A stretch of DNA of 64,000 nt from an uncultured Bacteroidales bacterium (GTDB taxonomy: Bacteria > Bacteroidota > Bacteroidia > Bacteroidales > UBA1402), in assembly GCA_942493385.1 (NCBI GenBank), contig OW818699.1:2454808-2518807 (forward strand). The letters are read 5' to 3'. The translations under genes and the position numbers were made by a program. This document shows positions 2,853 to 20,825 of this stretch, piece by piece. Within the stretch, counting starts at the first letter, position 1. The number at the start of each line of letters is the position of its first letter. Under the pieces are notes generated by a model that saw only the letters and a program-made list of their open reading frames with translations, was not told where the DNA came from and ran no database searches.

Positions 2853-4388
2853 ATGAATAAAAACGAGGTGTTTGAAAAGCGCTTGAAAGCGTTGCAAGAA
2901 ATGGAGGACAATGCAGCCACCCGACAGCATATCAAAGGAAAACTGACCGCTCGTGAACGATTGAACGTTCTGTTCGACGAAGGAACCTTTTTTGAATTCG
3001 ATGCTTTTGTAATACCCGCACAAACACCTGTCAGCAGCAAACAGACGAATTTTGGTGATGGTGTGGTGGTAGGTCGTGGACTGGTTCAAGGCCGAAGCGT
3101 TTTTGCTTACGCACAGGACTTCACTGTTCTGGGTGGATCTCTGGGCTTCGCACACGGAATGAAGATTGCCAAGGTGCAAGAAATGGCACTTAAACTTGGT
3201 GCGCCCATCGTTGGATTGATGGATTCCGGTGGAGCCCGCATTCAGGAGGGCGTCAAGAGTCTGTCCGCCTATGCGACCATTTTTAAAAACAATGTTCGTT
3301 CGTCTGGCATTATTCCACAAATCTCGGCTATTCTTGGTCCTGCAGCCGGTGGAGCGGTGTATTCTCCAGCCCTTACCGACTTCATTTTCATGACCAGCCA
3401 GACGTCCTACATGTTCGTTACTGGGCCCGATGTGGTCAAAGAAGTATTGAACGAGGATGTGGATATGGAAGGCCTGGGTGGTGGTACCATTCATGCCAGC
3501 AAAAGCGGTGTGGCTCATTTTGTTTCGGACGACGAGGAACACACCATCATGTTGATTCGCAAATTGTTATCTTACATTCCTTCCAACAATTACGAACCCC
3601 ATCCGGTTTCGAATCTGGTTAGTTGTTACGAGTCCCGTCAGGAGTTCCTCGACCAAATCATTCCAGACGATCCAAACCGCCCTTACGATATGAAGGACAT
3701 CATCCACATTCTGGTGGATAAGGATTCGTTCTTCGAAGTTCATGAAAAATTCGCTCAAAACATGCTGGTCGGTTTTGCTCGGCTCAACGGTAAAACCATC
3801 GGTATCGTAGCCAACCAACCCAAAGTGATGGCTGGTACGCTAGATATTAATGGCAGCGTTAAAGGCGCTCGCTTTGTACGTTTCTGCGATGCGTTCAACA
3901 TTCCATTGCTCATTTTGGAAGATGTGCCTGGATTCCTTCCAGGTGTTGAACAGGAACACAACGGCATCATTCGCAACGGCGCCAAGCTGCTTTACGCATT
4001 CTGCGAGGCGACGGTTCCAAAAATAACCATCATTACCCGTAAAGCATATGGTGGTGCCTACATTGTGATGAGCAGTTTGAATACTGGTGGCGACTTCAAT
4101 TTTGCTTGGCCTACGGCCGAAATCGCTGTGATGGGGCCTGCCGGTGCCATCAAGATTGTAAACAAACACGAACTGTCGGTTTCCGAAAACAAGGCCGAAC
4201 TCGAGAAGGTTCTCACCGAAAAGTACAAGAACGAGGTTGCAAACCCCTATAAAGCAGAAGAATACGCACTAATCGACGAAGTGATCCAACCATCATCTAC
4301 GCGTCAACTGCTCATTACTACTTTCGACATCCTTTCCAACAAACAATATTCCAAACCGGCACGCAAACATGGAAACATCCCCTTATAA
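2853..4388 (+). CDS. Acyl-CoA carboxylase carboxyltransferase subunit (propionyl-CoA carboxylase beta / methylmalonyl-CoA carboxyltransferase family)
   Basis: MDSGGARIQEGV motif and a second crotonase-like half (VPGFLPGVEQEHNGIIRNGAKLLYA). Start moved to ATG 2853 because track start 2712 lies at the pflA terminator and upstream of the -7 box. Confidence 0.9.
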   Translation: MNKNEVFEKRLKALQEMEDNAATRQHIKGKLTARERLNVLFDEGTFFEFDAFVIPAQTPVSSKQTNFGDGVVVGRGLVQGRSVFAYAQDFTVLGGSLGFAHGMKIAKVQEMALKLGAPIVGLMDSGGARIQEGVKSLSAYATIFKNNVRSSGIIPQISAILGPAAGGAVYSPALTDFIFMTSQTSYMFVTGPDVVKEVLNEDVDMEGLGGGTIHASKSGVAHFVSDDEEHTIMLIRKLLSYIPSNNYEPHPVSNLVSCYESRQEFLDQIIPDDPNRPYDMKDIIHILVDKDSFFEVHEKFAQNMLVGFARLNGKTIGIVANQPKVMAGTLDINGSVKGARFVRFCDAFNIPLLILEDVPGFLPGVEQEHNGIIRNGAKLLYAFCEATVPKITIITRKAYGGAYIVMSSLNTGGDFNFAWPTAEIAVMGPAGAIKIVNKHELSVSENKAELEKVLTEKYKNEVANPYKAEEYALIDEVIQPSSTRQLLITTFDILSNKQYSKPARKHGNIPL

Positions 4389-4407: not shown

Positions 4408-5904
4408 ATGAAGAGACGAATTTTAATAGCGAACCGGAGCGAAATAGCCATCCGAATCATCCGTTCAGCGCATAAGCTGGGGATGTGGACCGTGGTTTTT
4501 CAAAGTGACCGGGAACCAGATGCGTTGTATCTGAAGTTTGCCGACGAAATCATTCCAGCTCGTGATTCCAAAAACGAGAAACCAATTTTTTTGGATCAGG
4601 AACGCATTGTTGCATTGGCGCTCGAAAACCACATCGATTTGATTCACCCCGGATATGGTTTTTTATCGGAGAACCCGGATTTTGCTCAATTGTGCATCGA
4701 CAACGAAATTAACTTCATTGGTCCATCGCCACAGCTCATCCGAGACATGGGTTTGAAGACCATCGCTAAAAGCATGGCCATCAAAGCGGGTTTACCGCTT
4801 GTTCCAGGTAGCGACGGTGCGGTTGACGATGCGGTTGTCGCTCGGGAATTTGCAGATCGCATTGGTTATCCGGTCATTCTGAAGGCTTCGGCCGGAGGAG
4901 GCGGACGTGGCATGCGCATCGTGTCTAAACCGGAGACAATGGAACGTAACTTCAAATCGGCTTCTCAAGAGGCATTGGCCGCTTTCGGGAATGGTGATAT
5001 GTTCATTGAGAAATACCTGCAGAACCCGAAGCATCTTGAGTTTCAGATCATGGGTGACAAGCACGGTAACGTGGTGCATTTGGGTGAGCGCGAATGCTCC
5101 TTGCAACGCAAACACCAGAAGATCGTGGAAGAAGCGCCTTCAGCCAGCATCAGCGCAAAAGATCGTGCCGACATGGGCGAGATGGCAGTACGTTTCGCTA
5201 AATCCATCGGATACTATTCGGCAGGAACCATCGAATTCATTTTGGACGAGGACGGTTCCTATTATTTCATGGAAATGAACACTCGAATTCAGGTGGAGCA
5301 CCCAGTGACTGAAATGGTGACCGGTGTGGACTTGGTTGACTGGCAGATTCGGGTGGCATTGGGAAAAAAGCTTACCATGAAACAGGAGGACATTCAAATC
5401 AATGGTTGGGCCATTGAATGCCGAGTGAACGCAGAAGATCCGCAAAATCGTTTCGCTCCGCAAACAGGTTTTATCGACCGCATAAATTTCCCGCACGATC
5501 CCTCCATTCGCATCGAAACCGGTGTTCAAGACGGTTCGATCGTGACACCCTATTTCGACTCGATGATTGCCAAAATCATCGTACATGCCGAAAGTCGAGA
5601 AGCCGTCGTTGCAAAAACGTTGAAAGCCTTGTACGAATTCAGCCTGATAGGTCTGAAAACGACCGTTCCGTTCTGCCGCATCGTTTTGGAACATCCGGAA
5701 TTTGTCAATGCAAGTTACACTACCCGCTGGGTCGATCAGGTGTTCAAACCGGAGATGTTGGAAAACAAGGATGATGAACTGATCGGGGCCTTGGCAGCTA
5801 CCATTTTATATGCCTCTGAATACCTGCAGTTGTCGTCGGATTTGCCTTCCTACAAAAACGATTCGCTGAATGTCTGGGTATTGAACAAACGATTGAATTA
5901 CTGA
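4408..5904 (+). CDS. accC: Biotin carboxylase subunit (ATP-grasp)
   Basis: KASAGGGGRGMRIV and MEMNTRIQVEHPVTE motifs. Start set at MKRRILIANRSEIA, the typical biotin carboxylase N-terminus. Confidence 0.92.
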   Translation: MKRRILIANRSEIAIRIIRSAHKLGMWTVVFQSDREPDALYLKFADEIIPARDSKNEKPIFLDQERIVALALENHIDLIHPGYGFLSENPDFAQLCIDNEINFIGPSPQLIRDMGLKTIAKSMAIKAGLPLVPGSDGAVDDAVVAREFADRIGYPVILKASAGGGGRGMRIVSKPETMERNFKSASQEALAAFGNGDMFIEKYLQNPKHLEFQIMGDKHGNVVHLGERECSLQRKHQKIVEEAPSASISAKDRADMGEMAVRFAKSIGYYSAGTIEFILDEDGSYYFMEMNTRIQVEHPVTEMVTGVDLVDWQIRVALGKKLTMKQEDIQINGWAIECRVNAEDPQNRFAPQTGFIDRINFPHDPSIRIETGVQDGSIVTPYFDSMIAKIIVHAESREAVVAKTLKALYEFSLIGLKTTVPFCRIVLEHPEFVNASYTTRWVDQVFKPEMLENKDDELIGALAATILYASEYLQLSSDLPSYKNDSLNVWVLNKRLNY

Positions 5905-13078: not shown

Positions 13079-14314
13079 CTAAAAACTGTATGAAACCAGA
13101 ATGTTGCTGCTCCGAGTTTCAGACCCAAGGATAATATAAGGCGACATGCCTCCACCAAAAGCATATCGTGTTTCTAAAGTGAAGTGTTTGTAAATAATAC
13201 CAGCTCCGAATAAGAATCCCATTTCAAAGCGATAGATGTCATTCAAAGCCTTACCGTTTTCGTTCCAGTCTGAATTGTTTTTGGATATGCGTTCCTGATC
13301 ATTTATTTCATGTAGTATATTTCCCATCGAAAAACCTCCATTTACAAACAAAACCCCATTTTGTAGGAGTATTCGGTACCTTAAGAGGTTGTTCAGCTTT
13401 AGATAACCAAAATCGATGTTGGTATTGAATATACGACTGCCATCATCGTAACTACCACCGAACTTGTACGTCGCATACAAAAGTTCACTGCATATCGACC
13501 ACCGACCACGATTTCTCGGCTCCACAAATTCGACAAAAATCCCCGGTGTAAAGGATAATCCTGGTGAATACGTTGGTAAAACCAATTCTGGAAATTCAGT
13601 TCCGGTGAAATGAATGGAATTGATGCTTGCTCCTGCAATCAACCCATAGTTTACTTTGAACTTTATCTTTTTAATTTGGTTAAACTTGGTCGGCCTGACA
13701 AGCTTGTTGTAGGCATTGAAAAGTGCGGTCAGATTGTATCTGGTATACTGAACTCCTTCAATGGTTTTCTTCAATTCTGGTCGGTCGCTCATGTAGTAAA
13801 TTAACTGACCAACGTATTTTTTATACTCCCTAACGCTATTCACATCGTTAATATCATTATGATATAGCTTGTATCCCAATAGTTGGTAGGTAGTGTCAAT
13901 TTTTAAATAGAATAAATCGTCCGTATTGGAGTCCTTGTAATAGTAAAGACTTTTCTCTCCTATGACAAGAGCCCTCAGAAATACTGATTTTCTCTTTAAT
14001 TGCAATGCTGGATCATAGCTAATTGACTCATTCAACCGGGAACTATTTTCAATTTCAGCCTCTGTGCCTACATAGACATCACCATCGACCTGAAACATTT
14101 TGACATCTGTAGGTTGGTAAACGAGCACTTTGTCACCCTGCTTTTTGCAAAATCGGATGGACTCAGGGCTAAATTCCCAGTTTTGATAATCAACCATTCC
14201 AGTGAGGGTGTCACCGACTGAAGTCACAACCACGCCCGGTATGAAATTTTCTATAGCCTGAATTAAGTTGGAAACAGTCAGCAATAGTAATAAAGTAAAA
14301 ATTCGGTGTGTCAT
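13079..14314 (-). CDS. Outer-membrane beta-barrel protein of unknown function (paralog of 6465..7637)
   Basis: Signal peptide. C-terminus GGGMSPYIILGSETRSSNILVSYSF. Same three-part layout as paralog A. Confidence 0.7.
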   Translation of the reverse strand: MTHRIFTLLLLLTVSNLIQAIENFIPGVVVTSVGDTLTGMVDYQNWEFSPESIRFCKKQGDKVLVYQPTDVKMFQVDGDVYVGTEAEIENSSRLNESISYDPALQLKRKSVFLRALVIGEKSLYYYKDSNTDDLFYLKIDTTYQLLGYKLYHNDINDVNSVREYKKYVGQLIYYMSDRPELKKTIEGVQYTRYNLTALFNAYNKLVRPTKFNQIKKIKFKVNYGLIAGASINSIHFTGTEFPELVLPTYSPGLSFTPGIFVEFVEPRNRGRWSICSELLYATYKFGGSYDDGSRIFNTNIDFGYLKLNNLLRYRILLQNGVLFVNGGFSMGNILHEINDQERISKNNSDWNENGKALNDIYRFEMGFLFGAGIIYKHFTLETRYAFGGGMSPYIILGSETRSSNILVSYSF

Positions 14315-14370: not shown

Positions 14371-14414
14371 AAAAAAAAGTGAACCCCAAAAGATTTCTTT
14401 CTTCAGGGGTTCAC
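14371..14414 (-). terminator. Rho-independent terminator of the NifU-like/GGGtGRT operon
   Basis: 9-bp stem GTGAACCCC (14379-14387) / GGGGTTCAC (14406-14414). The A8 run at 14371-14378 is a U8 tract on the minus-strand transcript. Confidence 0.75.
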
Positions 14415-14440
14415 TTCTAAATTGCACTGAATGAAGTTTC

Positions 14441-14545
14441 AATAGAGTGCCAAGGTCAAGGCACTTTTTGACAGACACCCCGGAGCGTACTTAAGGTACG
14501 TGAGGAGTGGCTGGCGAAAAGTAACGCAGAGATTGGTGCTCTATT
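14441..14545 (+). repeat. Structured palindromic intergenic repeat, copy A (about 105 nt)
   Basis: AATAGAGTG...GCTCTATT terminal inverted repeats, long imperfect hairpin, conserved core CCCGGAGCGTAC-loop-GTACGTGAGGAG. Second copy at 18135-18238 in reverse orientation. Overlaps the stop codon of the GGGtGRT gene. Confidence 0.85.
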
Positions 14546-15545
14546 GAGACTTCGATGATTCCTCGATTGCGACTGCTACTGCAACAGTAGCACCAACCAT
14601 CGGATTGTTACCCATTCCAAGGAATCCCATCATTTCCACGTGAGCGGGAACTGACGAAGAACCTGCGAATTGAGCATCGCTGTGCATGCGGCCCATGGTG
14701 TCGGTCATGCCGTAAGAGGCGGGACCTGCTGCCATGTTGTCGGGGTGAAGAGTACGACCCGTACCGCCACCGGAAGCAACAGAGAAATACTTCTTGCCTT
14801 GTTCGTAGCATTCCTTCTTGTAGGTGCCTGCAACAGGGTGCTGGAAGCGGGTGGGGTTGGTGGAGTTACCCGTGATGGATACGTCGACACCTTCCTTGTG
14901 CATTACTGCAACGCCTTCGCGAACATCGTCGCAACCGTAGCATTTCACTTTGGCGCGGAGACCTGTGGAGTAGGGGATTTCTTTCACTACAGCCAAGTCA
15001 CTGGTGTAGTAGTCGAACTGCGTTTGAACGTAGGTGAAGCCGTTGATGCGGGAAATGATCATAGCGGCGTCCTTGCCCAGACCATTCAGGATAACGCGCA
15101 AAGGTTCTTTGCGAACTTTATTGGCTTTTTCGGCGATCTTGATGGCGCCTTCAGCAGCGGCAAAAGACTCGTGACCAGCCAGGAAAGCGAAGCATTTGGT
15201 TTCTTCGCGGAGCAGCATGGCGGCGAGGTTACCGTGACCGATACCAACCTTGCGGTCGTCGGCTACCGAACCCTTGATGCAGAATGCCTGCAGACCGATA
15301 CCAATGGCTTCAGCAGCCAGTGCAGCATTGGTGATGCCTTTCTTGATGGCGATGGCAGCACCCATCACGTAAGCCCATTTCGCGTTTTCGAATGCGATGG
15401 CTTGGGTTTCTTCACAAATTTTGTAAGGGTCGATGCCCTTGGCGTCGCAAATGGATTTTGCTTCTTCCAGACTGGAAATTCCGTACTGGTTCAATACCGC
15501 GTTGATCGTTTCGATTCTGCGGTCGTAGCTTTCAAATAATGCCAT
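14541..15545 (-). CDS. GGGtGRT-family protein (conserved, function unknown)
   Basis: Name-giving motif SGGGTGRTLHPDN is encoded at 14751-14771. 334 aa, the usual size for the family. Paired with a NifU/IscU-like gene, as I recall for other anaerobes. Confidence 0.85.
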   Translation of the reverse strand: MALFESYDRRIETINAVLNQYGISSLEEAKSICDAKGIDPYKICEETQAIAFENAKWAYVMGAAIAIKKGITNAALAAEAIGIGLQAFCIKGSVADDRKVGIGHGNLAAMLLREETKCFAFLAGHESFAAAEGAIKIAEKANKVRKEPLRVILNGLGKDAAMIISRINGFTYVQTQFDYYTSDLAVVKEIPYSTGLRAKVKCYGCDDVREGVAVMHKEGVDVSITGNSTNPTRFQHPVAGTYKKECYEQGKKYFSVASGGGTGRTLHPDNMAAGPASYGMTDTMGRMHSDAQFAGSSSVPAHVEMMGFLGMGNNPMVGATVAVAVAIEESSKSQ

Positions 15546-15563
15546 TGTATGTTTCCTCCTATA

Positions 15564-16256
15564 TTATTCGTGACGCGGGTCGATGTATTTAACTCCTTCG
15601 GCAAAGCGACCATAACTGGAGGTTGCTTTCTTCAATGCTTCGTTTGCATCGACGCCTTTCTTGATAGAATCCATGAATTTGCCCAAGTGGACGAATTCAT
15701 AACCGATGACGAGGTCGTCAGCGTCCAGGGCCATGCGAGAGCAATAGCCTTCGGCCATTTCGAGGTAACGAACCCCTTTGGCCATTGTGCCGTACATGGT
15801 ACCAACCTGACTGCGAAGGCCTTTGCCAAGGTCTTCCAAGCCTGCGCCGATGGGCAAACCACCTTCGGAGAATGCGGATTGGGTACGTCCGTAGACGATT
15901 TGCAAGAACAATTCGCGCATGGCCGTATTGATGGCGTCGCAAACGAGGTCGGTGTTCAGTGCTTCCAAAATGGTTTTGCCGGGAAGGATTTCAGAAGCCA
16001 TCGCTGCTGAATGGGTCATTCCAGAGCAACCGATGGTTTCGACCAAAGCTTCTTGAATGATGCCGTCCTTCACGTTGAGGGTAAGCTTGCAGGCACCCTG
16101 TTGAGGGGCGCACCAGCCAACTCCGTGTGTGAGACCGGAGATGTCTGACACTTCTTTGGCTCTTACCCACTTTCCTTCTTCAGGAATCGGAGCACTCGCA
16201 TGATTGGCTCCTTTTTGTACGCAACACATCTGTTGCACTTCGTGTGAATAAATCAT
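15564..16256 (-). CDS. NifU/IscU N-terminal-like Fe-S scaffold-like protein
   Basis: Cys-containing motifs GVGWCAPQQGACKL and ETIGCSGMTHSAAMAS resemble the IscU GCGSAIASSS segment. 18 nt upstream of the GGGtGRT gene (operon). Confidence 0.7.
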   Translation of the reverse strand: MIYSHEVQQMCCVQKGANHASAPIPEEGKWVRAKEVSDISGLTHGVGWCAPQQGACKLTLNVKDGIIQEALVETIGCSGMTHSAAMASEILPGKTILEALNTDLVCDAINTAMRELFLQIVYGRTQSAFSEGGLPIGAGLEDLGKGLRSQVGTMYGTMAKGVRYLEMAEGYCSRMALDADDLVIGYEFVHLGKFMDSIKKGVDANEALKKATSSYGRFAEGVKYIDPRHE

Positions 16257-16353
16257 TTTTCTAGATTTTGTGTGAGAGATTGTATATTATCCTAAATAAC
16301 TCCTTGATTGATTGCAGATTAACACATGAATGAAGCCTTATTGAAAAGCATTG

Positions 16354-16361
16354 CAAAATTA
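16354..16361 (-). promoter_or_regulatory. -7 box TAATTTTG for the NifU-like/GGGtGRT operon
   Basis: Plus strand reads CAAAATTA; extended minus-strand form TAATTTTGCAA. 98 nt upstream of ATG 16256, implying a long 5' UTR. Confidence 0.4.
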
Positions 16362-16484
16362 CTAAAAAAAGGACAATTCTGCAAGCCATTTTGTTTGAGT
16401 ATTTGAAAAAAATTGACGAAATTTGCACCGTTTTTAAGGAAAACACCAAACAAACATTCAACCAATCAATTATACGATTACACT

Positions 16485-18128
16485 ATGACAAAAAGTGCCT
16501 TGCAGATAGCGCGCGCCGCCTATCAGCCGAAAATGCCCCAAGCTTTGACCGGCTTCGTAAAAATGAAAGAAGGAGCAGCCACCCAATCTGTTGCCGACCA
16601 AGATGCCATTAAAGAGTTGTTTCCAAACACCTACGGAATGCCTTTGGTTTCGTTTGAACCAAGTGATGCAGCCACCCACTTTGATCCCATCAATGTTGGT
16701 GTGATTCTTTCTGGCGGACAAGCCCCAGGCGGCCACAACGTCATTGCCGGAATTTTCGACGGCATCAAGCATTTGAACAAGGCTTCCAAGCTGTACGGTT
16801 TCATCTTGGGTCCTGGTGGCCTGGTGGATCACAACTATATGGAATTGACTGCTGACATCATCGATGAATACCGCAACACAGGTGGTTTCGACATCATCGG
16901 CTCAGGCCGCACCAAACTGGAAACTCACGAACAGTTCGACAAAGGACTGGTAATCTTGAAAGCGCTGGATATCAAGGCACTGGTTGTAATCGGTGGTGAT
17001 GATTCAAATACAAATGCTTGTGTATTAGCCGAATACTATGCCAATATTAAAGCAGGGGTTCAGGTTATTGGTTGCCCCAAAACCATCGACGGCGACCTCA
17101 AGAACAGCATGATTGAAGCTTCTTTCGGTTTCGACACCGCTTGTAAAGTCTATTCCGAAGTCATCGGCAATATTCAACGTGACTGCAATTCAGCCCGTAA
17201 ATACTGGCACTTCATCAAACTGATGGGCCGTTCCGCATCGCACATCGCATTGGAATGCGCCTTGCAGGTTCAACCCAACTATTGCATCATTTCCGAAGAA
17301 GTGGAAGCGCTCAACCTGACACTGGACGATGTCGTCACCAACATTGCAAAAGCCGTCGCTCAACGTGCCGAACAAGGCAACAACTTCGGCACCGTCTTGA
17401 TTCCCGAAGGTTTGGTCGAATTCATACCTTCCATCAAAAAGCTGATTTCCGAACTGAACGACTTCTTGGCAACACATCAGGAAGAATTCAACCTGATCCG
17501 TCACTCCGAAAAGCGCAACTACATCATCAAGTTGATCAGCAAGGAAAACTCCGATATTTATGCTTCACTGCCCGAAGGCGTTGCCCGTCAGCTGACGTTG
17601 GACCGTGACCCACACGGCAATGTTCAGGTGTCGCTCATCGAAACGGAAAAGATGTTGGCCGAAATGGTAGATACCAAACTGAAAGAATGGAAGAAGGAAG
17701 GCAAATTCATTGGCAAGTTTGCTTCTCAAGTACATTTCTTCGGCTACGAAGGACGCTGTGCCGCACCATCCAACTACGATGCAGACTATTGCTACTCACT
17801 GGGTTACACGGCTGCTCAACTCATCGCTTCCGGCAAGACTGGTTACATGTCATCTGTACGCAACACGACTGCCCCAGCTTCTGAATGGATTTCTGGCGGG
17901 GTACCCATCACCATGATGATGAATATGGAACGTCGCCACGGTGAAATGAAGCCTGTTATTCAAAAGGCTTTGGTTGAATTGGACGGCAAGCCGTTCAAGG
18001 CGTTCGCAGCCAAGCGTGCCGCATGGGCCATCCATACGGATTATGTGTATCCGGGACCGATTCAGTACTTTGGTCCGACGGAAGTTTGCGATCAGCCCTC
18101 GAAAACCCTAGTCCTCGAACAAAAGTGA
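16485..18128 (+). CDS. pfp: Pyrophosphate-dependent 6-phosphofructokinase
   Basis: Long-form PFK (547 aa). Motifs GVILSGGQAPGGHNVI, VVIGGDDSNTNA, GCPKTIDGDLKN. Start set at MTKSALQIARAAYQPK (ATG 16485). Confidence 0.9.
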   Translation: MTKSALQIARAAYQPKMPQALTGFVKMKEGAATQSVADQDAIKELFPNTYGMPLVSFEPSDAATHFDPINVGVILSGGQAPGGHNVIAGIFDGIKHLNKASKLYGFILGPGGLVDHNYMELTADIIDEYRNTGGFDIIGSGRTKLETHEQFDKGLVILKALDIKALVVIGGDDSNTNACVLAEYYANIKAGVQVIGCPKTIDGDLKNSMIEASFGFDTACKVYSEVIGNIQRDCNSARKYWHFIKLMGRSASHIALECALQVQPNYCIISEEVEALNLTLDDVVTNIAKAVAQRAEQGNNFGTVLIPEGLVEFIPSIKKLISELNDFLATHQEEFNLIRHSEKRNYIIKLISKENSDIYASLPEGVARQLTLDRDPHGNVQVSLIETEKMLAEMVDTKLKEWKKEGKFIGKFASQVHFFGYEGRCAAPSNYDADYCYSLGYTAAQLIASGKTGYMSSVRNTTAPASEWISGGVPITMMMNMERRHGEMKPVIQKALVELDGKPFKAFAAKRAAWAIHTDYVYPGPIQYFGPTEVCDQPSKTLVLEQK

Positions 18129-18134
18129 TTTCCA

Positions 18135-18238
18135 AATAGAGCGTCCATCTCGGCGTTACTCATAAAAAATGGCTCCTCACGTACCAAAGTACGCTCCGGG
18201 GCCATTTTTCATGAGTGCCTTGACCTGAACACTCTATT
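18135..18238 (-). repeat. Structured palindromic intergenic repeat, copy B (about 104 nt)
   Basis: Its reverse complement aligns block by block with copy A. Starts 6 nt after the pfp stop codon, between convergent pfp and prmA. Confidence 0.85.
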
Positions 18239-18276
18239 AGAAAATCACCCAGTGGGGTGTTTGCCAGAAGAAAGAA

Positions 18277-19256: not shown

Positions 19257-20825
19257 ATGAAAACGAAATGGATGATTTCGATGACCCTGGCATTGATGTT
19301 TACGGGACTCGCACAGGCTCAAACCTTCGAGGATGACCTGTATTACAATCCGAAAACGGCTAAAGCGGAAGCCAAACCTAAGCCCCAAAAGGCAAGCCAA
19401 GTTCAACAATCGAACAGTAACGTTCGGGTGTACGACCAAACCGGCACCCTTAAAACATACGATTTACGAAATGTGGACGAATACAACCGTCGCCCCAACC
19501 CAAATCAGGTAAACGAGGAGCTTACAGGTGATACGTTGGCTTATACCGACACCTTGGCTTTGGACGAAAACGGTCAACCTTTTGAATATTCAGAACGAAT
19601 CCGTCGTTTTCACAACCCCAAATTCACCAAGCAAATTACCGATGATGAGTACATCAGTATTTATGTGGAAGATGGAGCAGACGTGAACATTTATTATGTG
19701 GACGGAAATGCCAACCAATTCATGAGCCCGTATTATTACGACAACTATTGGTATCCTACCTACGGTTACGGATGGAACAACTGGTATCGACGCGGTTGGG
19801 GCATGTATTACGACCCATGGATGTATTCAGGCTGGGGATTTTCAGATCCTTGGTATTCAGGATATTACGGTTACGGTTTCGGCAGCTGGTACGATCCATG
19901 GTGGGGTTATAACGGCTACGGAAGCTGTTATGGCGGTTATTATGGTTATGGCTACGGGAACTATTACGGTTACGGCGGCGGTTGGGGCTACGGCTACGGT
20001 GGCAGCTATGGCACGCTCGGTCGTGACGCTTTCTCCAGAAACCGGCATACCCTTTCCAACAATCAGCGTGATTTCATTTCCAATGTCGGCAGCGGTCATT
20101 TAGGCAGCAGCCGAGCATCCAGTGGTAGTGGTGGCACTCGATCAGGATCAACGTTTTCTGCCATGAATCCCGGATCCAGAACCGGAAATGGTACTTATAC
20201 TAATTCACGTGTTAACGGTTCTGGCATGGGAACCCGTACAAACAGCAATTATGGTGACAACTTGAATGCTGGAAGCAGGAACACGTATAGTCCTACGACA
20301 CGAAGCTCCAACAGCAATTCATCAACCAGATCGGGCAGTTACAGCACCACCAGCAGACAACCTGCCACCGGATCGTACAGCACCAGTCGTGGCAATGCAA
20401 CAACCAATAGCAGTTACGGAACAAGTCGAAGCAATACCGGAAGTACGGGCAATTACAATACGTCACGCACAAGTACTGGCAGCAATTCGACATCTACACC
20501 TCAGACTCGCACTGCACCTACATCCACTGGAAACAATTCAGGCAGTTACGGAACAGCAAGGACCAGCACTTCTGGCTCTTCAAGTACAACAAGAACAACA
20601 TCATCGTCGTCTTCGTCCACATCAAGACAGACGTATAGCACACCTTCTTCAACTCCAACTTATACGCCGACCAGCACGCCATCCTATACTCCATCCTCCA
20701 GTTCCAGTTCCAGTTCCAGCTCCAGTTCTAGCTCCAGCTCCAGCTCTAGTTCTGGGGGCGGCTCGCGCAGCAGTGGTGGCGGTAGCAGCAGCAGCGGCGG
20801 TACTTTCGGTGGAGGACGCAGGTAA
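19257..20825 (+). CDS. Secreted low-complexity protein: Tyr/Gly/Trp-rich segment, Ser/Thr/Asn/Arg-rich segment, poly-Ser tail
   Basis: Signal peptide ..FTGLAQA-QT, then an ordinary-composition region to about aa 155. Aromatic/Gly block at aa 158-252 (nt 19728-20012), e.g. GYYGYGYGNYYGYGGGWGYGYGGSYG. About 200 aa of S/T/N/R/G, then S20 and GGGSRSSGGGSSSSGGTFGGGRR. Confidence 0.7.
   Translation: MKTKWMISMTLALMFTGLAQAQTFEDDLYYNPKTAKAEAKPKPQKASQVQQSNSNVRVYDQTGTLKTYDLRNVDEYNRRPNPNQVNEELTGDTLAYTDTLALDENGQPFEYSERIRRFHNPKFTKQITDDEYISIYVEDGADVNIYYVDGNANQFMSPYYYDNYWYPTYGYGWNNWYRRGWGMYYDPWMYSGWGFSDPWYSGYYGYGFGSWYDPWWGYNGYGSCYGGYYGYGYGNYYGYGGGWGYGYGGSYGTLGRDAFSRNRHTLSNNQRDFISNVGSGHLGSSRASSGSGGTRSGSTFSAMNPGSRTGNGTYTNSRVNGSGMGTRTNSNYGDNLNAGSRNTYSPTTRSSNSNSSTRSGSYSTTSRQPATGSYSTSRGNATTNSSYGTSRSNTGSTGNYNTSRTSTGSNSTSTPQTRTAPTSTGNNSGSYGTARTSTSGSSSTTRTTSSSSSSTSRQTYSTPSSTPTYTPTSTPSYTPSSSSSSSSSSSSSSSSSSSSGGGSRSSGGGSSSSGGTFGGGRR
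20695..20754 (+). repeat. Imperfect (TCC-AGY) hexanucleotide repeat encoding poly-Ser
   Basis: Reads tcc tcc agt tcc agt tcc agt tcc agc tcc agt tct agc tcc agc tcc agc tct agt tct. Confidence 0.8.

Follow-up and report, generated by a model that had tools for sequence, protein, structure and literature searches.

ERIC-like hairpin elements at the stop codons of Bacteroidales genes

ERIC sequences, also known as IRU and as the RU-1 of Delihas, are imperfect palindromes of 124-127 nt that occur as dispersed, multi-copy elements between genes in transcribed regions, where they may overlap gene ends. Reviews class them as MITEs with TA duplications, place them in Enterobacteriaceae and Vibrionaceae, and report effects on mRNA (PMC3184786, PMC10969869). 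In the window, by which we mean the whole 64-kb stretch of an uncultured Bacteroidales genome that was analysed, two imperfect palindromes of this size, copies A and B, resemble ERIC in being dispersed, multi-copy and overlapping with gene ends, and their location in a transcribed intergenic region is given by position only, between a stop codon and a terminator (Table 1). A covariance-model search with filters off revealed no copies in the window besides these two (E about 1e-22, with the next best match at E 0.075). Rfam 15 gave no match at gathering score across the window, and around copy A it returned only noise at E up to 10.

Table 1. Positions of the two hairpin copies, their conserved blocks and the adjoining gene features in the window
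Feature	Positions	Strand	Description
Copy A	14431..14555	+	full 125-nt imperfect palindrome, G-rich strand on +; 88 bits, E 3e-22
Left junction block, copy A	14453..14464	+	AGGTCAAGGCAC
Apical module, copy A	14479..14507	+	CCCGGAGCGTAC-TTAAG-GTACGTGAGGAG
Right junction block, copy A	14522..14533	+	TAACGCAGAGAT
Copy B	18125..18248	-	full 124-nt imperfect palindrome, G-rich strand on -; 89 bits, E 1e-22
Left junction block, copy B	18215..18226	-	AGGTCAAGGCAC
Apical module, copy B	18173..18201	-	same as copy A except for the loop
Right junction block, copy B	18147..18158	-	TAACGCCGAGAT
GGGtGRT-family gene	14541..15545	-	3' end runs into copy A
TAG stop of GGGtGRT gene	14541..14543	-	inside copy A, supplied by the element's CAATAG
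Spacer	14415..14430	.	contains AATTGCACTGA motif; between copy A and terminator
Intrinsic terminator of GGGtGRT transcript	14371..14414	-	separate from copy A; GTGAACCCC/GGGGTTCAC stem, T8 tail
pfp, PPi-dependent phosphofructokinase gene	16413..18128	+	3' end runs into copy B
TGA stop of pfp	18126..18128	+	inside outer arm of copy B
Terminator stem of convergent prmA	18246..18259	-	T-tail ATTTTCT is the outer arm of copy B

An earlier note had described the pair as a repeat of about 105 nt. The positions it gave and its alignment of copy A (+ strand) with the reverse complement of copy B were confirmed, with 84% identity including the flanks, and all the shared blocks it named were found in both copies. 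Its length was an underestimate: the palindromes reach 8-10 bp further on each side, to 124-125 nt, ending in ATGAAGTTTC...GAGACTTCGA in copy A and, as read on the + strand, in GTGATTTCC...GAAAATCAC in copy B. These outer 8-10 bp consist of pairs that differ between the copies and are complementary within each. The same holds for the arm segments, which the note had correctly described as unlike between copies yet pairing within each, and the compensatory C-G to T-A change it saw in the outer stem was present, together with an exchange of A-T for C-G. The block patterns of the two copies had no match in 100 shuffled sequences, and both copies fold far above shuffled sequence on either strand (z -4.6 to -9.6), with energies of -46 and -56 kcal/mol on the A+/B- strand versus -34 and -43 kcal/mol on the opposite one.

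The apical module folds into a 6-bp stem with an invariant G.T pair, a GGA/GA internal loop and a CC/GG clamp, and in most of 41 diverse copies tabulated CAAGG lies 22-23 nt 5' of this apex and AACGC 15-16 nt 3' of it. In the alignment of the element 78% of cells hold a pair, compared with 61-65% in shuffles, and the covariation score of 0.33-0.39 (0.10-0.12 when shuffled, and at most 0.18 in slid controls) was reached by 0 of 500 shuffles, bearing out the earlier proposal of a conserved long hairpin with covariation support. The element is one long imperfect hairpin, made of an invariant apex CCGGAGCGTAC-loop-GTACGTGAGGAG, a conserved CAAGGC/AACGC junction with set spacing from the apex, and stems that are free in sequence and constrained in pairing.

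This architecture is that of ERIC, whose E. coli consensus was taken from PMC2759123. Both have the block order CAAGGC, GGAGC(G/T)TAC-loop-GTA(C/A)G(T/C)GA and CAACGCAG, at spacings of 23 and 17 nt in ERIC versus 22-23 and 15-17 nt here. The apex is identical to the E. coli ERIC centre GGAGCTTAC-ATAA-GTAAGTGA at 21 of 26 positions, the single difference in the apical stem being one compensated pair, and Citrobacter ERIC copies carry GGAGCGTAC, the same as the window. A plain local alignment to E. coli ERIC recovers only the centre, and the arms outside the apex and junction blocks do not align; homology beyond the centre is seen at the profile level only. CAAGGC and CAACGCAG stand at matching distances, and a covariance model (R1) whose seeds held no enterobacterial sequence detected canonical ERIC in Citrobacter with 34-35 bits (E 2-3e-6); its top match in 40 kb of E. 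coli was ERIC (17.5 bits, E 0.017). On the strength of the common length, block order and spacing and of these R1 matches, we assign copies A and B to the ERIC (IRU) superfamily.

The apex itself is much more widespread. An exact pattern of 23 specified bases occurs in species-representative genomes at 115 or more loci in at least nine phyla, with hosts in Pseudomonadota, Bacillota, Bacteroidota, Nitrospirota, Desulfobacterota, Myxococcota, Planctomycetota, Methylomirabilota and Patescibacteria, while about 0.07 matches would be expected by chance in 596 Gb according to our calculation. Judged from these matches, its range far exceeds that given for ERIC in reviews.

Further copies, whose absence everywhere the earlier note would have counted against the element, form a subfamily in Bacteroidales with a consensus of about 127 nt, at no fewer than 120 metagenomic loci and with up to 4 copies on one 311-kb contig. 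Many copies occur in related genomes, and the earlier view of a dispersed, MITE-like repeat that is not a terminator is supported. Copies A and B are oriented alike relative to the upstream gene, as had been noted, and so are 71 of 84 non-redundant related copies, in which a gene 3' end lies at one and the same element end. The stop lies within 15 nt of that end in 58 of those 71 copies. Of 40 cleanly anchored copies, 32 have a stop that begins 1-9 nt upstream of GATG, and 6 use the TAG of the element itself. The right end of the element frequently adjoins the TAA stop of the neighbouring gene. The genes preceding the copies are unrelated to one another.

The window gives examples of this placement. 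The stop of the GGGtGRT gene lies within copy A, as previously described, and GGGtGRT genes of element-free relatives end two codons earlier. The pfp stop had been placed 6 nt ahead of copy B; this was wrong since the palindrome of copy B is longer than first described, and the stop is inside it. Beyond copy A, a separate terminator with T8 on the minus strand was confirmed, so that the element itself is not the terminator. Its stem is seen in the sequence, with 14379-14387 pairing with 14406-14414 around a loop of 18 nt, and it was missed by the terminator scan because the scan was limited to loops of up to 8 nt. The terminator that the scan did find at copy B belongs to prmA. The AATTGCACTGA motif in the spacer recurs beside the same element end in independent copies. 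In the Bacteroidales subfamily, the element thus sits directionally at stop codons, upstream of an intrinsic terminator, and often provides the stop codon itself.

Orthologous sites in close relatives, which form a cluster with 89-92% identity in the GGGtGRT gene, are filled in some and empty in others, showing that the element was mobile. At site A, the window and L119 carry the element, and L116, L117, L118 and L120 lack it; at site B, the window and L118 carry it, and it is absent from L116, L117 and L120. The element was therefore inserted into, or lost from, gene 3' ends within this lineage. Copy B of the window and that of L118 are 83% identical, with flanking genes at only 79-81%. Their apex and junction blocks are unchanged, and a stem segment of 7-8 nt has been swapped on both sides for another complementary sequence. 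Once inserted, the element persists with an unchanged apex and junction and compensated stems. Degraded copies were also seen, with an apex mutation in L119, an internal deletion in L135 and nested insertions in several others.

We consider it probable that these are ERIC-like mobile hairpins at Bacteroidales stop codons, which are co-transcribed as the ends of mRNAs and modulate their 3' processing or decay. Judging from position, the C-rich strand would be co-transcribed with GGGtGRT at copy A and with pfp at copy B, forming the closing stretch of each mRNA, and the long hairpin in the mRNA would most likely modulate 3'-end processing or decay, by analogy with what is reported for Yersinia ERIC. 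A trans-acting factor that copies the element or processes it would probably recognise it by the invariant apex and the junction loops.

The strand that such a factor would read is a point on which the pairing statistics bear. The earlier note had taken a few G:T mismatches as a hint about the folding strand, and the hint holds statistically: on the antisense strand relative to the neighbouring gene, non-Watson-Crick pairs comprise 142 G.T versus 41 A.C, although copies within a lineage are related by descent, so that the events counted are not independent. Lineages independent of one another show the bias as well (49:2 in Eubacteriales, 8:0 in Desulfobacterium, 4:1 and 6:0 in the window, and also in Pseudomonas and Listeria). 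The better-folding strand is the G-rich one in 81 of 84 Bacteroidales copies, with a median difference of 13 kcal/mol, and in 80 of 99 diverse copies. The excess of G.T and the greater stability on the antisense strand do not match a purely sense-mRNA role as a 3'-UTR hairpin, and the wobble statistics suggest that what the trans-acting factor reads is the G-rich strand, in the form of RNA or of single-stranded DNA. It is possible, if somewhat unlikely, that this strand is the functional one altogether, as an antisense or independent small RNA or as a single-stranded DNA that arises during replication or transposition, folded into the hairpin, with the apex bound by a widely conserved protein and the position at gene ends reflecting targeting or tolerance and not a 3'-UTR function. 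The invariant G.T and purine-rich internal loops of the apex lie on the G-rich strand, Bacillaceae copies have this strand as the transcribed one in the 16S-23S spacer, and the usual deamination bias of the non-transcribed strand would give the opposite asymmetry. However, the adjacent gene reads the C-rich strand in the 71 of 84 Bacteroidales copies, a scan for sigma-70-type promoters identified none for the G-rich strand, and the asymmetry is reversed in a second enterobacterial family.

The precise position between stop codon and terminator, and the persistence at an orthologous locus over about 20% DNA divergence with compensated stems, would also be expected of a mainly host-selected, cis-acting 3'-UTR RNA, either a stabiliser or an RNase processing site, that spread by duplication or recombination and not by selfish mobility; the effects of ERIC and other MITEs on mRNA levels agree with this as well. 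We regard it as unlikely, since the element is patchy among close relatives at sites A and B, its upstream genes are unrelated, the apex recurs unchanged in rRNA spacers and in different phyla, the sense strand pairs less well, and the copies of L119 and L135 and those with nested insertions are decaying or truncated.

The element is small, non-coding and palindromic, with terminal inverted repeats, multiple copies and presence/absence polymorphism at orthologous sites, which together with the classing of ERIC in reviews would suit an ordinary IS-derived MITE, mobilised by a transposase that binds its terminal repeats and duplicates the target site, the hairpin being a by-product without an RNA role. 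The earlier note had named this outcome, copies with target-site duplications beside a cognate transposase, as one that would count against its own reading, and it found no support here: neither a duplication nor an autonomous partner was seen. The termini are (A/G)AGATG...CATCTT with a left flank of mostly GA or AA, not TA, and no TA or other target-site duplication was evident; the empty sites do not align at the level of single bases. No transposase, mobilising gene or recurrent neighbouring protein was found among the ORFs around copies, and the 1.1 Mb of sequence surrounding them held no larger or autonomous element that shares these termini. In addition, conservation runs opposite to what binding at terminal repeats predicts, with termini that vary freely and covary and a centre that stays the same from phylum to phylum, and the orientation bias of 71 versus 8 is unexpected for a symmetric TA target, so this origin is quite improbable. 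It is highly improbable that the element is simply a long Rho-independent terminator or that the two palindromes are a pair by chance, for although the hairpin lies at gene ends and its right flank is T-rich on the G-rich strand in many copies, CAUUCAGUGCAAUU and no U-run follows copy A on the transcribed strand, which has its separate terminator, copy B adjoins the terminator of prmA, the convergent gene, and chance is excluded by the block-pattern shuffles and the exact apex matches across phyla.

A wider view, which we put forward tentatively and hold to be on the doubtful side, is that ERIC is the enterobacterial tip of a pan-bacterial hairpin family. The 28-nt apex, with its G.A/A.G-type internal loop and invariant G.U, and the CAAGGC/AACGC junction would then dock a widespread factor reading the G-rich strand, and the Bacteroidales elements would be a directional 3'-end cassette that lands on and replaces stop codons. 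If this were true, the invariant apex would point to a new mechanism of mobilisation or RNA processing in at least nine phyla, distinct from a classical terminal-repeat transposase.

Among known systems, ERIC is the closest. The element here differs from it in its termini (AAGATG...CATCTT versus TATAC...GTATA), in that neither the TA ends nor the TA duplication described for ERIC can be seen, in its Bacteroidales host, to which the source names of the closest proteins (Bacteroidales or Rikenellaceae) point and which lies outside the range of Enterobacteriaceae and Vibrionaceae given in reviews, and in its strong directional placement at stop codons, which is not reported in the reviews PMC3184786 and PMC10969869. 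A second family in E. coli and Citrobacter, present in 5,426 of 5,426 E. coli genomes at a median of 4 places per genome, carries the exact window apex CCGGAGCGTAC...GTACGTGAGGAG in a hairpin of about 120 nt, but has the junction blocks CAGCGCGCAG / GAGCACTG and the reversed wobble asymmetry. REP/BIME/REPIN elements, which are associated with RAYT transposases, are likewise extragenic palindromes at gene 3' ends, are considered to work as folded single-stranded molecules, and can stabilise upstream mRNA. Their units, GC-rich hairpins of 20-40 nt, bear a GTAG or CGTC tag and come in doublets or arrays, whereas the element here is a single, untagged hairpin of 125 nt, and the earlier REP/BIME-like reading was dropped in favour of ERIC/IRU as the closest known family. 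Generic MITEs (Correia/NEMIS, RUP, RPE, YPAL) are similarly small, non-coding and numerous with inverted-repeat ends, often co-transcribed at gene ends and sometimes fused with reading frames. For the element here no cognate IS is known, and none was seen in the 1.1 Mb that surround copies or in ORFs that recur beside them; the element differs from these MITEs in having a conserved centre, variable ends and a core common to several phyla.

Copy A, at the 3′ end of the GGGtGRT gene, had been aligned block by block in the earlier note (14441-14545, plus strand) with the reverse complement of copy B at the 3′ end of pfp (18135-18238), and our analysis confirmed this alignment. The shared blocks occurred by chance in the window in 0 of 100 shuffles, and both strands of both copies folded with z of -4.6 to -9.6 against shuffled sequence. 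The strand read as plus in A and minus in B (the G-rich strand, the C-rich strand being sense to the adjacent gene) was about 12-13 kcal/mol more stable than the opposite one. When folded with additional flank and compared with related copies, the repeats proved longer than the original about 105 nt, with 8-10 further outer pairs which differ between A and B and are complementary within each copy. Because the palindromes reach further out, both upstream genes terminate within the element: the GGGtGRT stop lies inside copy A, as the note had it, and the pfp stop, wrongly placed there 6 nt before copy B, lies in its outer arm. The separate terminator reported after copy A was also borne out, and copy B adjoins the terminator of the convergent prmA gene. 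Searching the entire window with a covariance model, filters off, returned no copies besides A and B, and an Rfam search at gathering and permissive thresholds gave no family match. Two window ORFs beside the elements had no Pfam match at E 0.001 (coordinates of all features are tabulated below).

Coordinates of the repeat copies and of associated features in the window and at loci (L numbers) from other genomes or contigs
Feature	Sequence	Position	Strand	Remark
Copy A	window	14431-14555	+	G-rich strand
Copy B	window	18125-18248	-	G-rich strand
GGGtGRT stop TAG	window	14541-14543	-	element's own CAATAG
pfp stop TGA	window	18126-18128		in outer arm of copy B
Terminator after copy A	window	14371-14414		beyond 16-nt spacer on transcribed strand
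ORF	window	13079-14314	-	411 aa
ORF	window	19257-20825	+	522 aa
Head-to-head pair	L187	4706-4826 and 4877-4999
Head-to-head pairs	L125, L137, L194, L204, L131, L176, L195
Nested repeat	L230	~3059-3133
Nested repeat	L235, L128, L132, L149, L175, L177, L206, L207, L134
Nested repeat	L228, L124, L141, L214			opposite orientation
Recurrent terminator-like hairpin	L139, L189, L157, L160, L215, L164, L193, L224, L195			left flanks
Insertion sequence	L116	1473-2981		DDE_Tnp_1/DUF772 domains
Bacillaceae rRNA-spacer copy	L012	4266-4623		core 4545-4571
Bacillaceae rRNA-spacer copy	L007	1865-2170		core 1916-1942
Second E. coli family	L114	~521-607

From the outside in, the G-rich strand has an outer stem, then a conserved junction (5′ CAAGGC, 3′ AACGC) and a variable stem of roughly 15 pairs in which a few mismatches are fixed. 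Next come a mismatch of one base, a CC/GG clamp and a GGA/GA internal loop, and the tip is an apical stem of six pairs (GCGTAC/GTACGT, starting with an invariant G.T) closed by a loop of 3-6 nt. CAAGG and AACGC stood 22-23 nt and 15-16 nt from the apex, the conserved 28-nt hairpin tip, in most of 41 copies from many lineages. For pair counts, an explicit structure was applied to two alignments, of 26 and 35 diverse copies. These replaced gapless counts over all 99 diverse copies, which failed, the subfamilies differing in register; RNAalifold on a MAFFT alignment recovered the stems only in part. In the two alignments, 78-79% of cells were paired, compared to 61-65% after shuffling, and the covariation score was 0.33-0.39 against 0.10-0.12, with 0 of 500 shuffles as high and at most 0.18 when partners were slid one to three columns. 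Of the 27 pairs in the first alignment, 14 had changed at both positions, as had 21 of the 33 in the second. Apex invariance in these alignments is by construction. The apex was also unchanged in 13 of 14 Bacteroidales copies that had not been selected by the junction block of our metagenome scan pattern (AGGTCAAGGC-N15-19-CCGGAGCGTAC), a test only partly independent, as half of the apex was part of the pattern and an intact one is favoured by the model. The loops of this conserved hairpin are thus invariant, and its stems covary.

Its two strands are not equivalent. The G-rich strand folded better in 80 of 99 diverse copies, with 247 G.U pairs outside the apex versus 176 on the other strand, and several independent lineages had extreme strand ratios, the second enterobacterial family showing the reverse. 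Among Bacteroidales copies it was the more stable strand in 81 of 84. Departures from the Watson-Crick majority in 103 unique model-aligned copies comprised 142 G.T and 41 A.C cells, which points the same way as the earlier hint from G:T mismatches on the A-plus/B-minus strand, although shared ancestry of the copies and the fitting of the alignment to a G-rich model mean that these are not independent events. We infer that this direction is opposite to that of cytosine deamination of the non-transcribed strand. Adjacent genes read the C-rich strand, whereas copies in Bacillaceae rRNA spacers have the G-rich strand in rRNA sense. To reconcile these facts, the obvious candidate would be the G-rich strand in a single-stranded DNA or antisense RNA form.

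Among the source names of the closest homologues of the GGGtGRT protein were Rikenellaceae and Bacteroidales bacterium. The metagenome scan gave at least 120 loci, with up to 4 copies per contig among the matches listed, the 4 being on a 311-kb contig. From 84 non-redundant full copies we derived a consensus of about 127 nt, AAGATGTTTCAATAGAG(C/T)GCCAAGGTCAAGGC...GCAGAGATTGG(C/T)GCTCTATTGAGACATCTT, whose terminal pairs covary (AAGATG/CATCTT, AGGATG/CATCCT, CGATG/CATCG, GTGATG/CATCAC). These copies are placed with a strong directional bias at stop codons, upstream of terminators. Beside the CATCTT end, 71 of 84 had a gene on the opposite strand ending there, with its stop within 15 nt of the element end in 58 of the 71, and only 8 of 84 had a gene start at that end. 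Where the stop could be cleanly anchored (40 copies), it began 1-9 nt upstream of GATG in 32, and the element's own TAG was the stop in 6; TAA was used in 30 of the 34 non-internal stops. One copy closely followed a 5S rRNA gene, both in the same sense. Each gene of a convergent pair can have its own copy in the same relative orientation. At such genes we also observed head-to-head pairs about 50-120 nt apart, a distinct subtype (AGTACAAGGC...GCCGTAATCCGC) following one stop and the window subtype the other. Separately, the right arm of many Bacteroidales copies contains a second, nested small palindromic repeat, about 75 nt long (GTTTTCGATGAGCAAGAGCAGAGGCAAACTTGTTTGACTATGCCGAGCGGAGAAAACGACTG...), at the junction AACG or just after GAGATT, in either orientation.

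Beyond the other (left) end we repeatedly observed a semi-conserved spacer, about 18 nt long (GGCAATACGGTAGA, GGAATTGCACTGAA and variants; AATTGCACTGAA in copy A). A T-run stood 20-23 nt from that end, a fixed distance, in only about a third of the copies (31 of 84), and strong hairpins were found in 28 of 84 compared to 14 of 84 controls. A stop-hairpin-terminator cassette, in which the element would carry its terminator, is therefore a partial observation. At independent loci, terminator-like hairpins 20-23 nt from the element also belonged to one recurrent type (GAGGCTGTATCAAA...TGATACAGCCTCTTTTT and compensated variants), pointing to either a composite unit or a second repeat family. Bacteroidetes-type promoters carry the motif TTTG / TAnnTTTG; judged by eye, neither spacing nor sequence in the left flank fits one.

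Syntenic loci from five related genomes (L116-L120), whose GGGtGRT genes share 89-92% DNA identity with that of the window (81% in one outgroup), showed that occupancy varies. At site A, the window and L119 have the element (filled) and L116, L117, L118 and L120 lack it (empty); at site B, the window and L118 are filled, and L116, L117 and L120 are empty. In genomes where site A is empty, the corresponding protein was two residues shorter, which would be expected had the element taken the place of the original stop. The intergenic DNA around sites A and B was too diverged for junctions to be placed to the base, and so no target duplication was established there. An insertion sequence lies between prmA and pfp in L116, beside the empty site B. 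Copy B was 83% identical between the window and L118, compared to 79-81% for the flanking pfp and prmA sequences. Its apex and both junction blocks were unchanged, and the distal half of its variable stem differs on both sides yet pairs (ACTCATGAAAAATGG/CCATTTTTTATGAGT in the window, GTAATGCAGAAATGG/CCATTTTTGCGTTAC in L118). Copy A likewise shows compensated terminal changes relative to L119 (AATAGAG/CTCTATT to AATACAG/CTGTATT), with one apex mutation in L119. The family combines many dispersed copies, presence/absence polymorphism and long retention with compensation.

We scanned one genome per species for exact CCGGAGCGTAC-N3-6-GTACGTGAGGAG and obtained at least 115 loci, where about 0.07 chance matches were computed for 596 Gb. 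Hosts among the matches listed included Pseudomonas, many Enterobacterales, Wenzhouxiangella and alphaproteobacterial MAGs; Bacillaceae, Listeria goaensis, Emergencia and other Clostridia; Nitrospirota, Desulfobacterium, Myxococcota, Ca. Scalindua and Methylomirabilota; and one Bacteroidales and one Minisyncoccia MAG. Since isolate genomes are among the hosts, MAG contamination cannot account for the spread. Almost all exact matches listed were at the tip of a long hairpin, and the exact apex was not found in viral contigs. In a Nitrospirae MAG (MHEO01; L025, L072, L089, L099, L106, L115), copies had an extra terminal repeat, CTAGGAGCCTGTCCGAG, about 28 nt left of the left end; copies of this subfamily end ...GGCTCCTA(G/A), from which they may be TA-flanked.

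In Niallia, Sporosarcina and Cytobacillus, the apex was observed with CAAGGAAGC/GCTGACGCAG junctions in the 16S-23S rRNA spacer. It lies about 50 nt upstream of 23S, and this position explains the short high-coverage contigs among the apex matches. Resemblance of the 3′ half of the apex, GTACGTGAGGA (window 14500-14510), to 23S GTACGAGAGGA (L012 7316), one base apart, raised mimicry of the sarcin-ricin loop; the adjoining second half, CCGGAG, lacks conservation in Bacillaceae 23S, and we therefore took the likeness to be coincidental. A likeness of AGC...GU to group II domain V was dropped, the hairpin being too short and without a bulge. The sole match of a full-text search with the apex sequence was primer Bh5'NGS1, in the 5′ exon common to four Bacillus halodurans group IIC intron B.h.I1 copies, which has AGCGACGACAGACCGGAGCGTACAC (PMC1702495). 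This is the Bacillaceae form of the element, and these intron copies thus lie a short way downstream of one. The primer places the Bacillaceae version upstream of intron copies and gives no evidence that the element is part of an intron.

No transposase was found among the genes neighbouring copies, nor any recurrent neighbouring gene or longer element bounded by the same termini around them; apparent clusters of neighbour proteins (72% GC MAG) proved to be the repeat translated within spurious ORFs and a common ABC ATPase. Conservation is opposite to that of a terminal-repeat-binding transposase, the centre being invariant and the ends free, and this is our main reason to think that the mobilising or processing machinery is unusual. 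From its position, the element would be co-transcribed with the upstream gene, and it would probably affect 3′-end processing or stability, by analogy with the effect of ERIC on mRNA in Yersinia, as summarised in reviews (PMC3184786, PMC10969869). A trans-acting factor probably recognises the apex and junction.

The finding is real, and identical apex and architecture in Bacteroidota, Bacillota, Nitrospirota, Planctomycetota and other phyla make the question of how ERIC-type elements move testable, as do freely covarying stems around invariant loops and the preferential keeping of one strand foldable. Together, these three results provide a short invariant bait for pull-downs and a broad phylogenetic distribution for co-occurrence analysis of partners. 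To our knowledge, few post-transcriptional signals have been described in Bacteroidota. Stop-codon placement in Bacteroidales suggests that the elements shape many mRNA 3′ ends, sometimes giving the stop codon and altering the C-terminus. Use of ERIC sequences as typing targets goes back three decades.

The E. coli ERIC consensus printed in Delihas 2007 reads, in G-rich orientation, ...GCAG-CAAGGC-GGCAAGTGAGTGAATCC-CCAGGAGCTTAC-ATAA-GTAAGTGACTGG-GGTGAGCGAACGCAGC-CAACGCAG-CTGCAGC... (PMC2759123). It matches the window element in length, block order and spacing, and its apical stem differs by one compensated pair. Plain local alignment between the two covered the centre only (21 of 26 positions, z 4.6). 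The covariance model R1, seeded with 35 non-enterobacterial copies, matched two Citrobacter sequences (34-35 bits, E 2-3e-6) that are evident ERIC copies, ATTCGAGTTGCATCAAGGCGGCG...AATCCCCGGGAGCGTAC...GGGGTGAGCGAGGAAAGCCAACACAGATGCAGCTTGAA, and its best match in 40 kb of E. coli was an ERIC copy already located by BLAST, with strand and register both correct (17.5 bits, E 0.017). This detection is stronger than the local alignment, and we therefore file the window element in an ERIC superfamily. A second E. coli family of about 120 nt was observed with exactly the window's apex and different junction blocks (CAGCGCGCAG / GAGCACTG); it occurs in all 5,426 complete genomes at a median of 4 places per genome, the median for canonical ERIC being 13. 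ERIC is listed under Enterobacteriaceae in a 2011 review and under Enterobacteriaceae and Vibrionaceae in a 2024 review (PMC3184786, PMC10969869), and we found no description of ERIC-type relatives in other phyla in the literature, our coverage of which is incomplete. The 2007 paper states the transfer mechanism to be unknown, and the ERIC literature consulted for this comparison identified no mechanism of movement. The closest known family is thus ERIC, and the element is not a new kind. Its Bacteroidales host, apex identity across phyla, stop-codon targeting and strand asymmetry are absent from the literature surveyed, and together they make the old question of ERIC-type function experimentally approachable.
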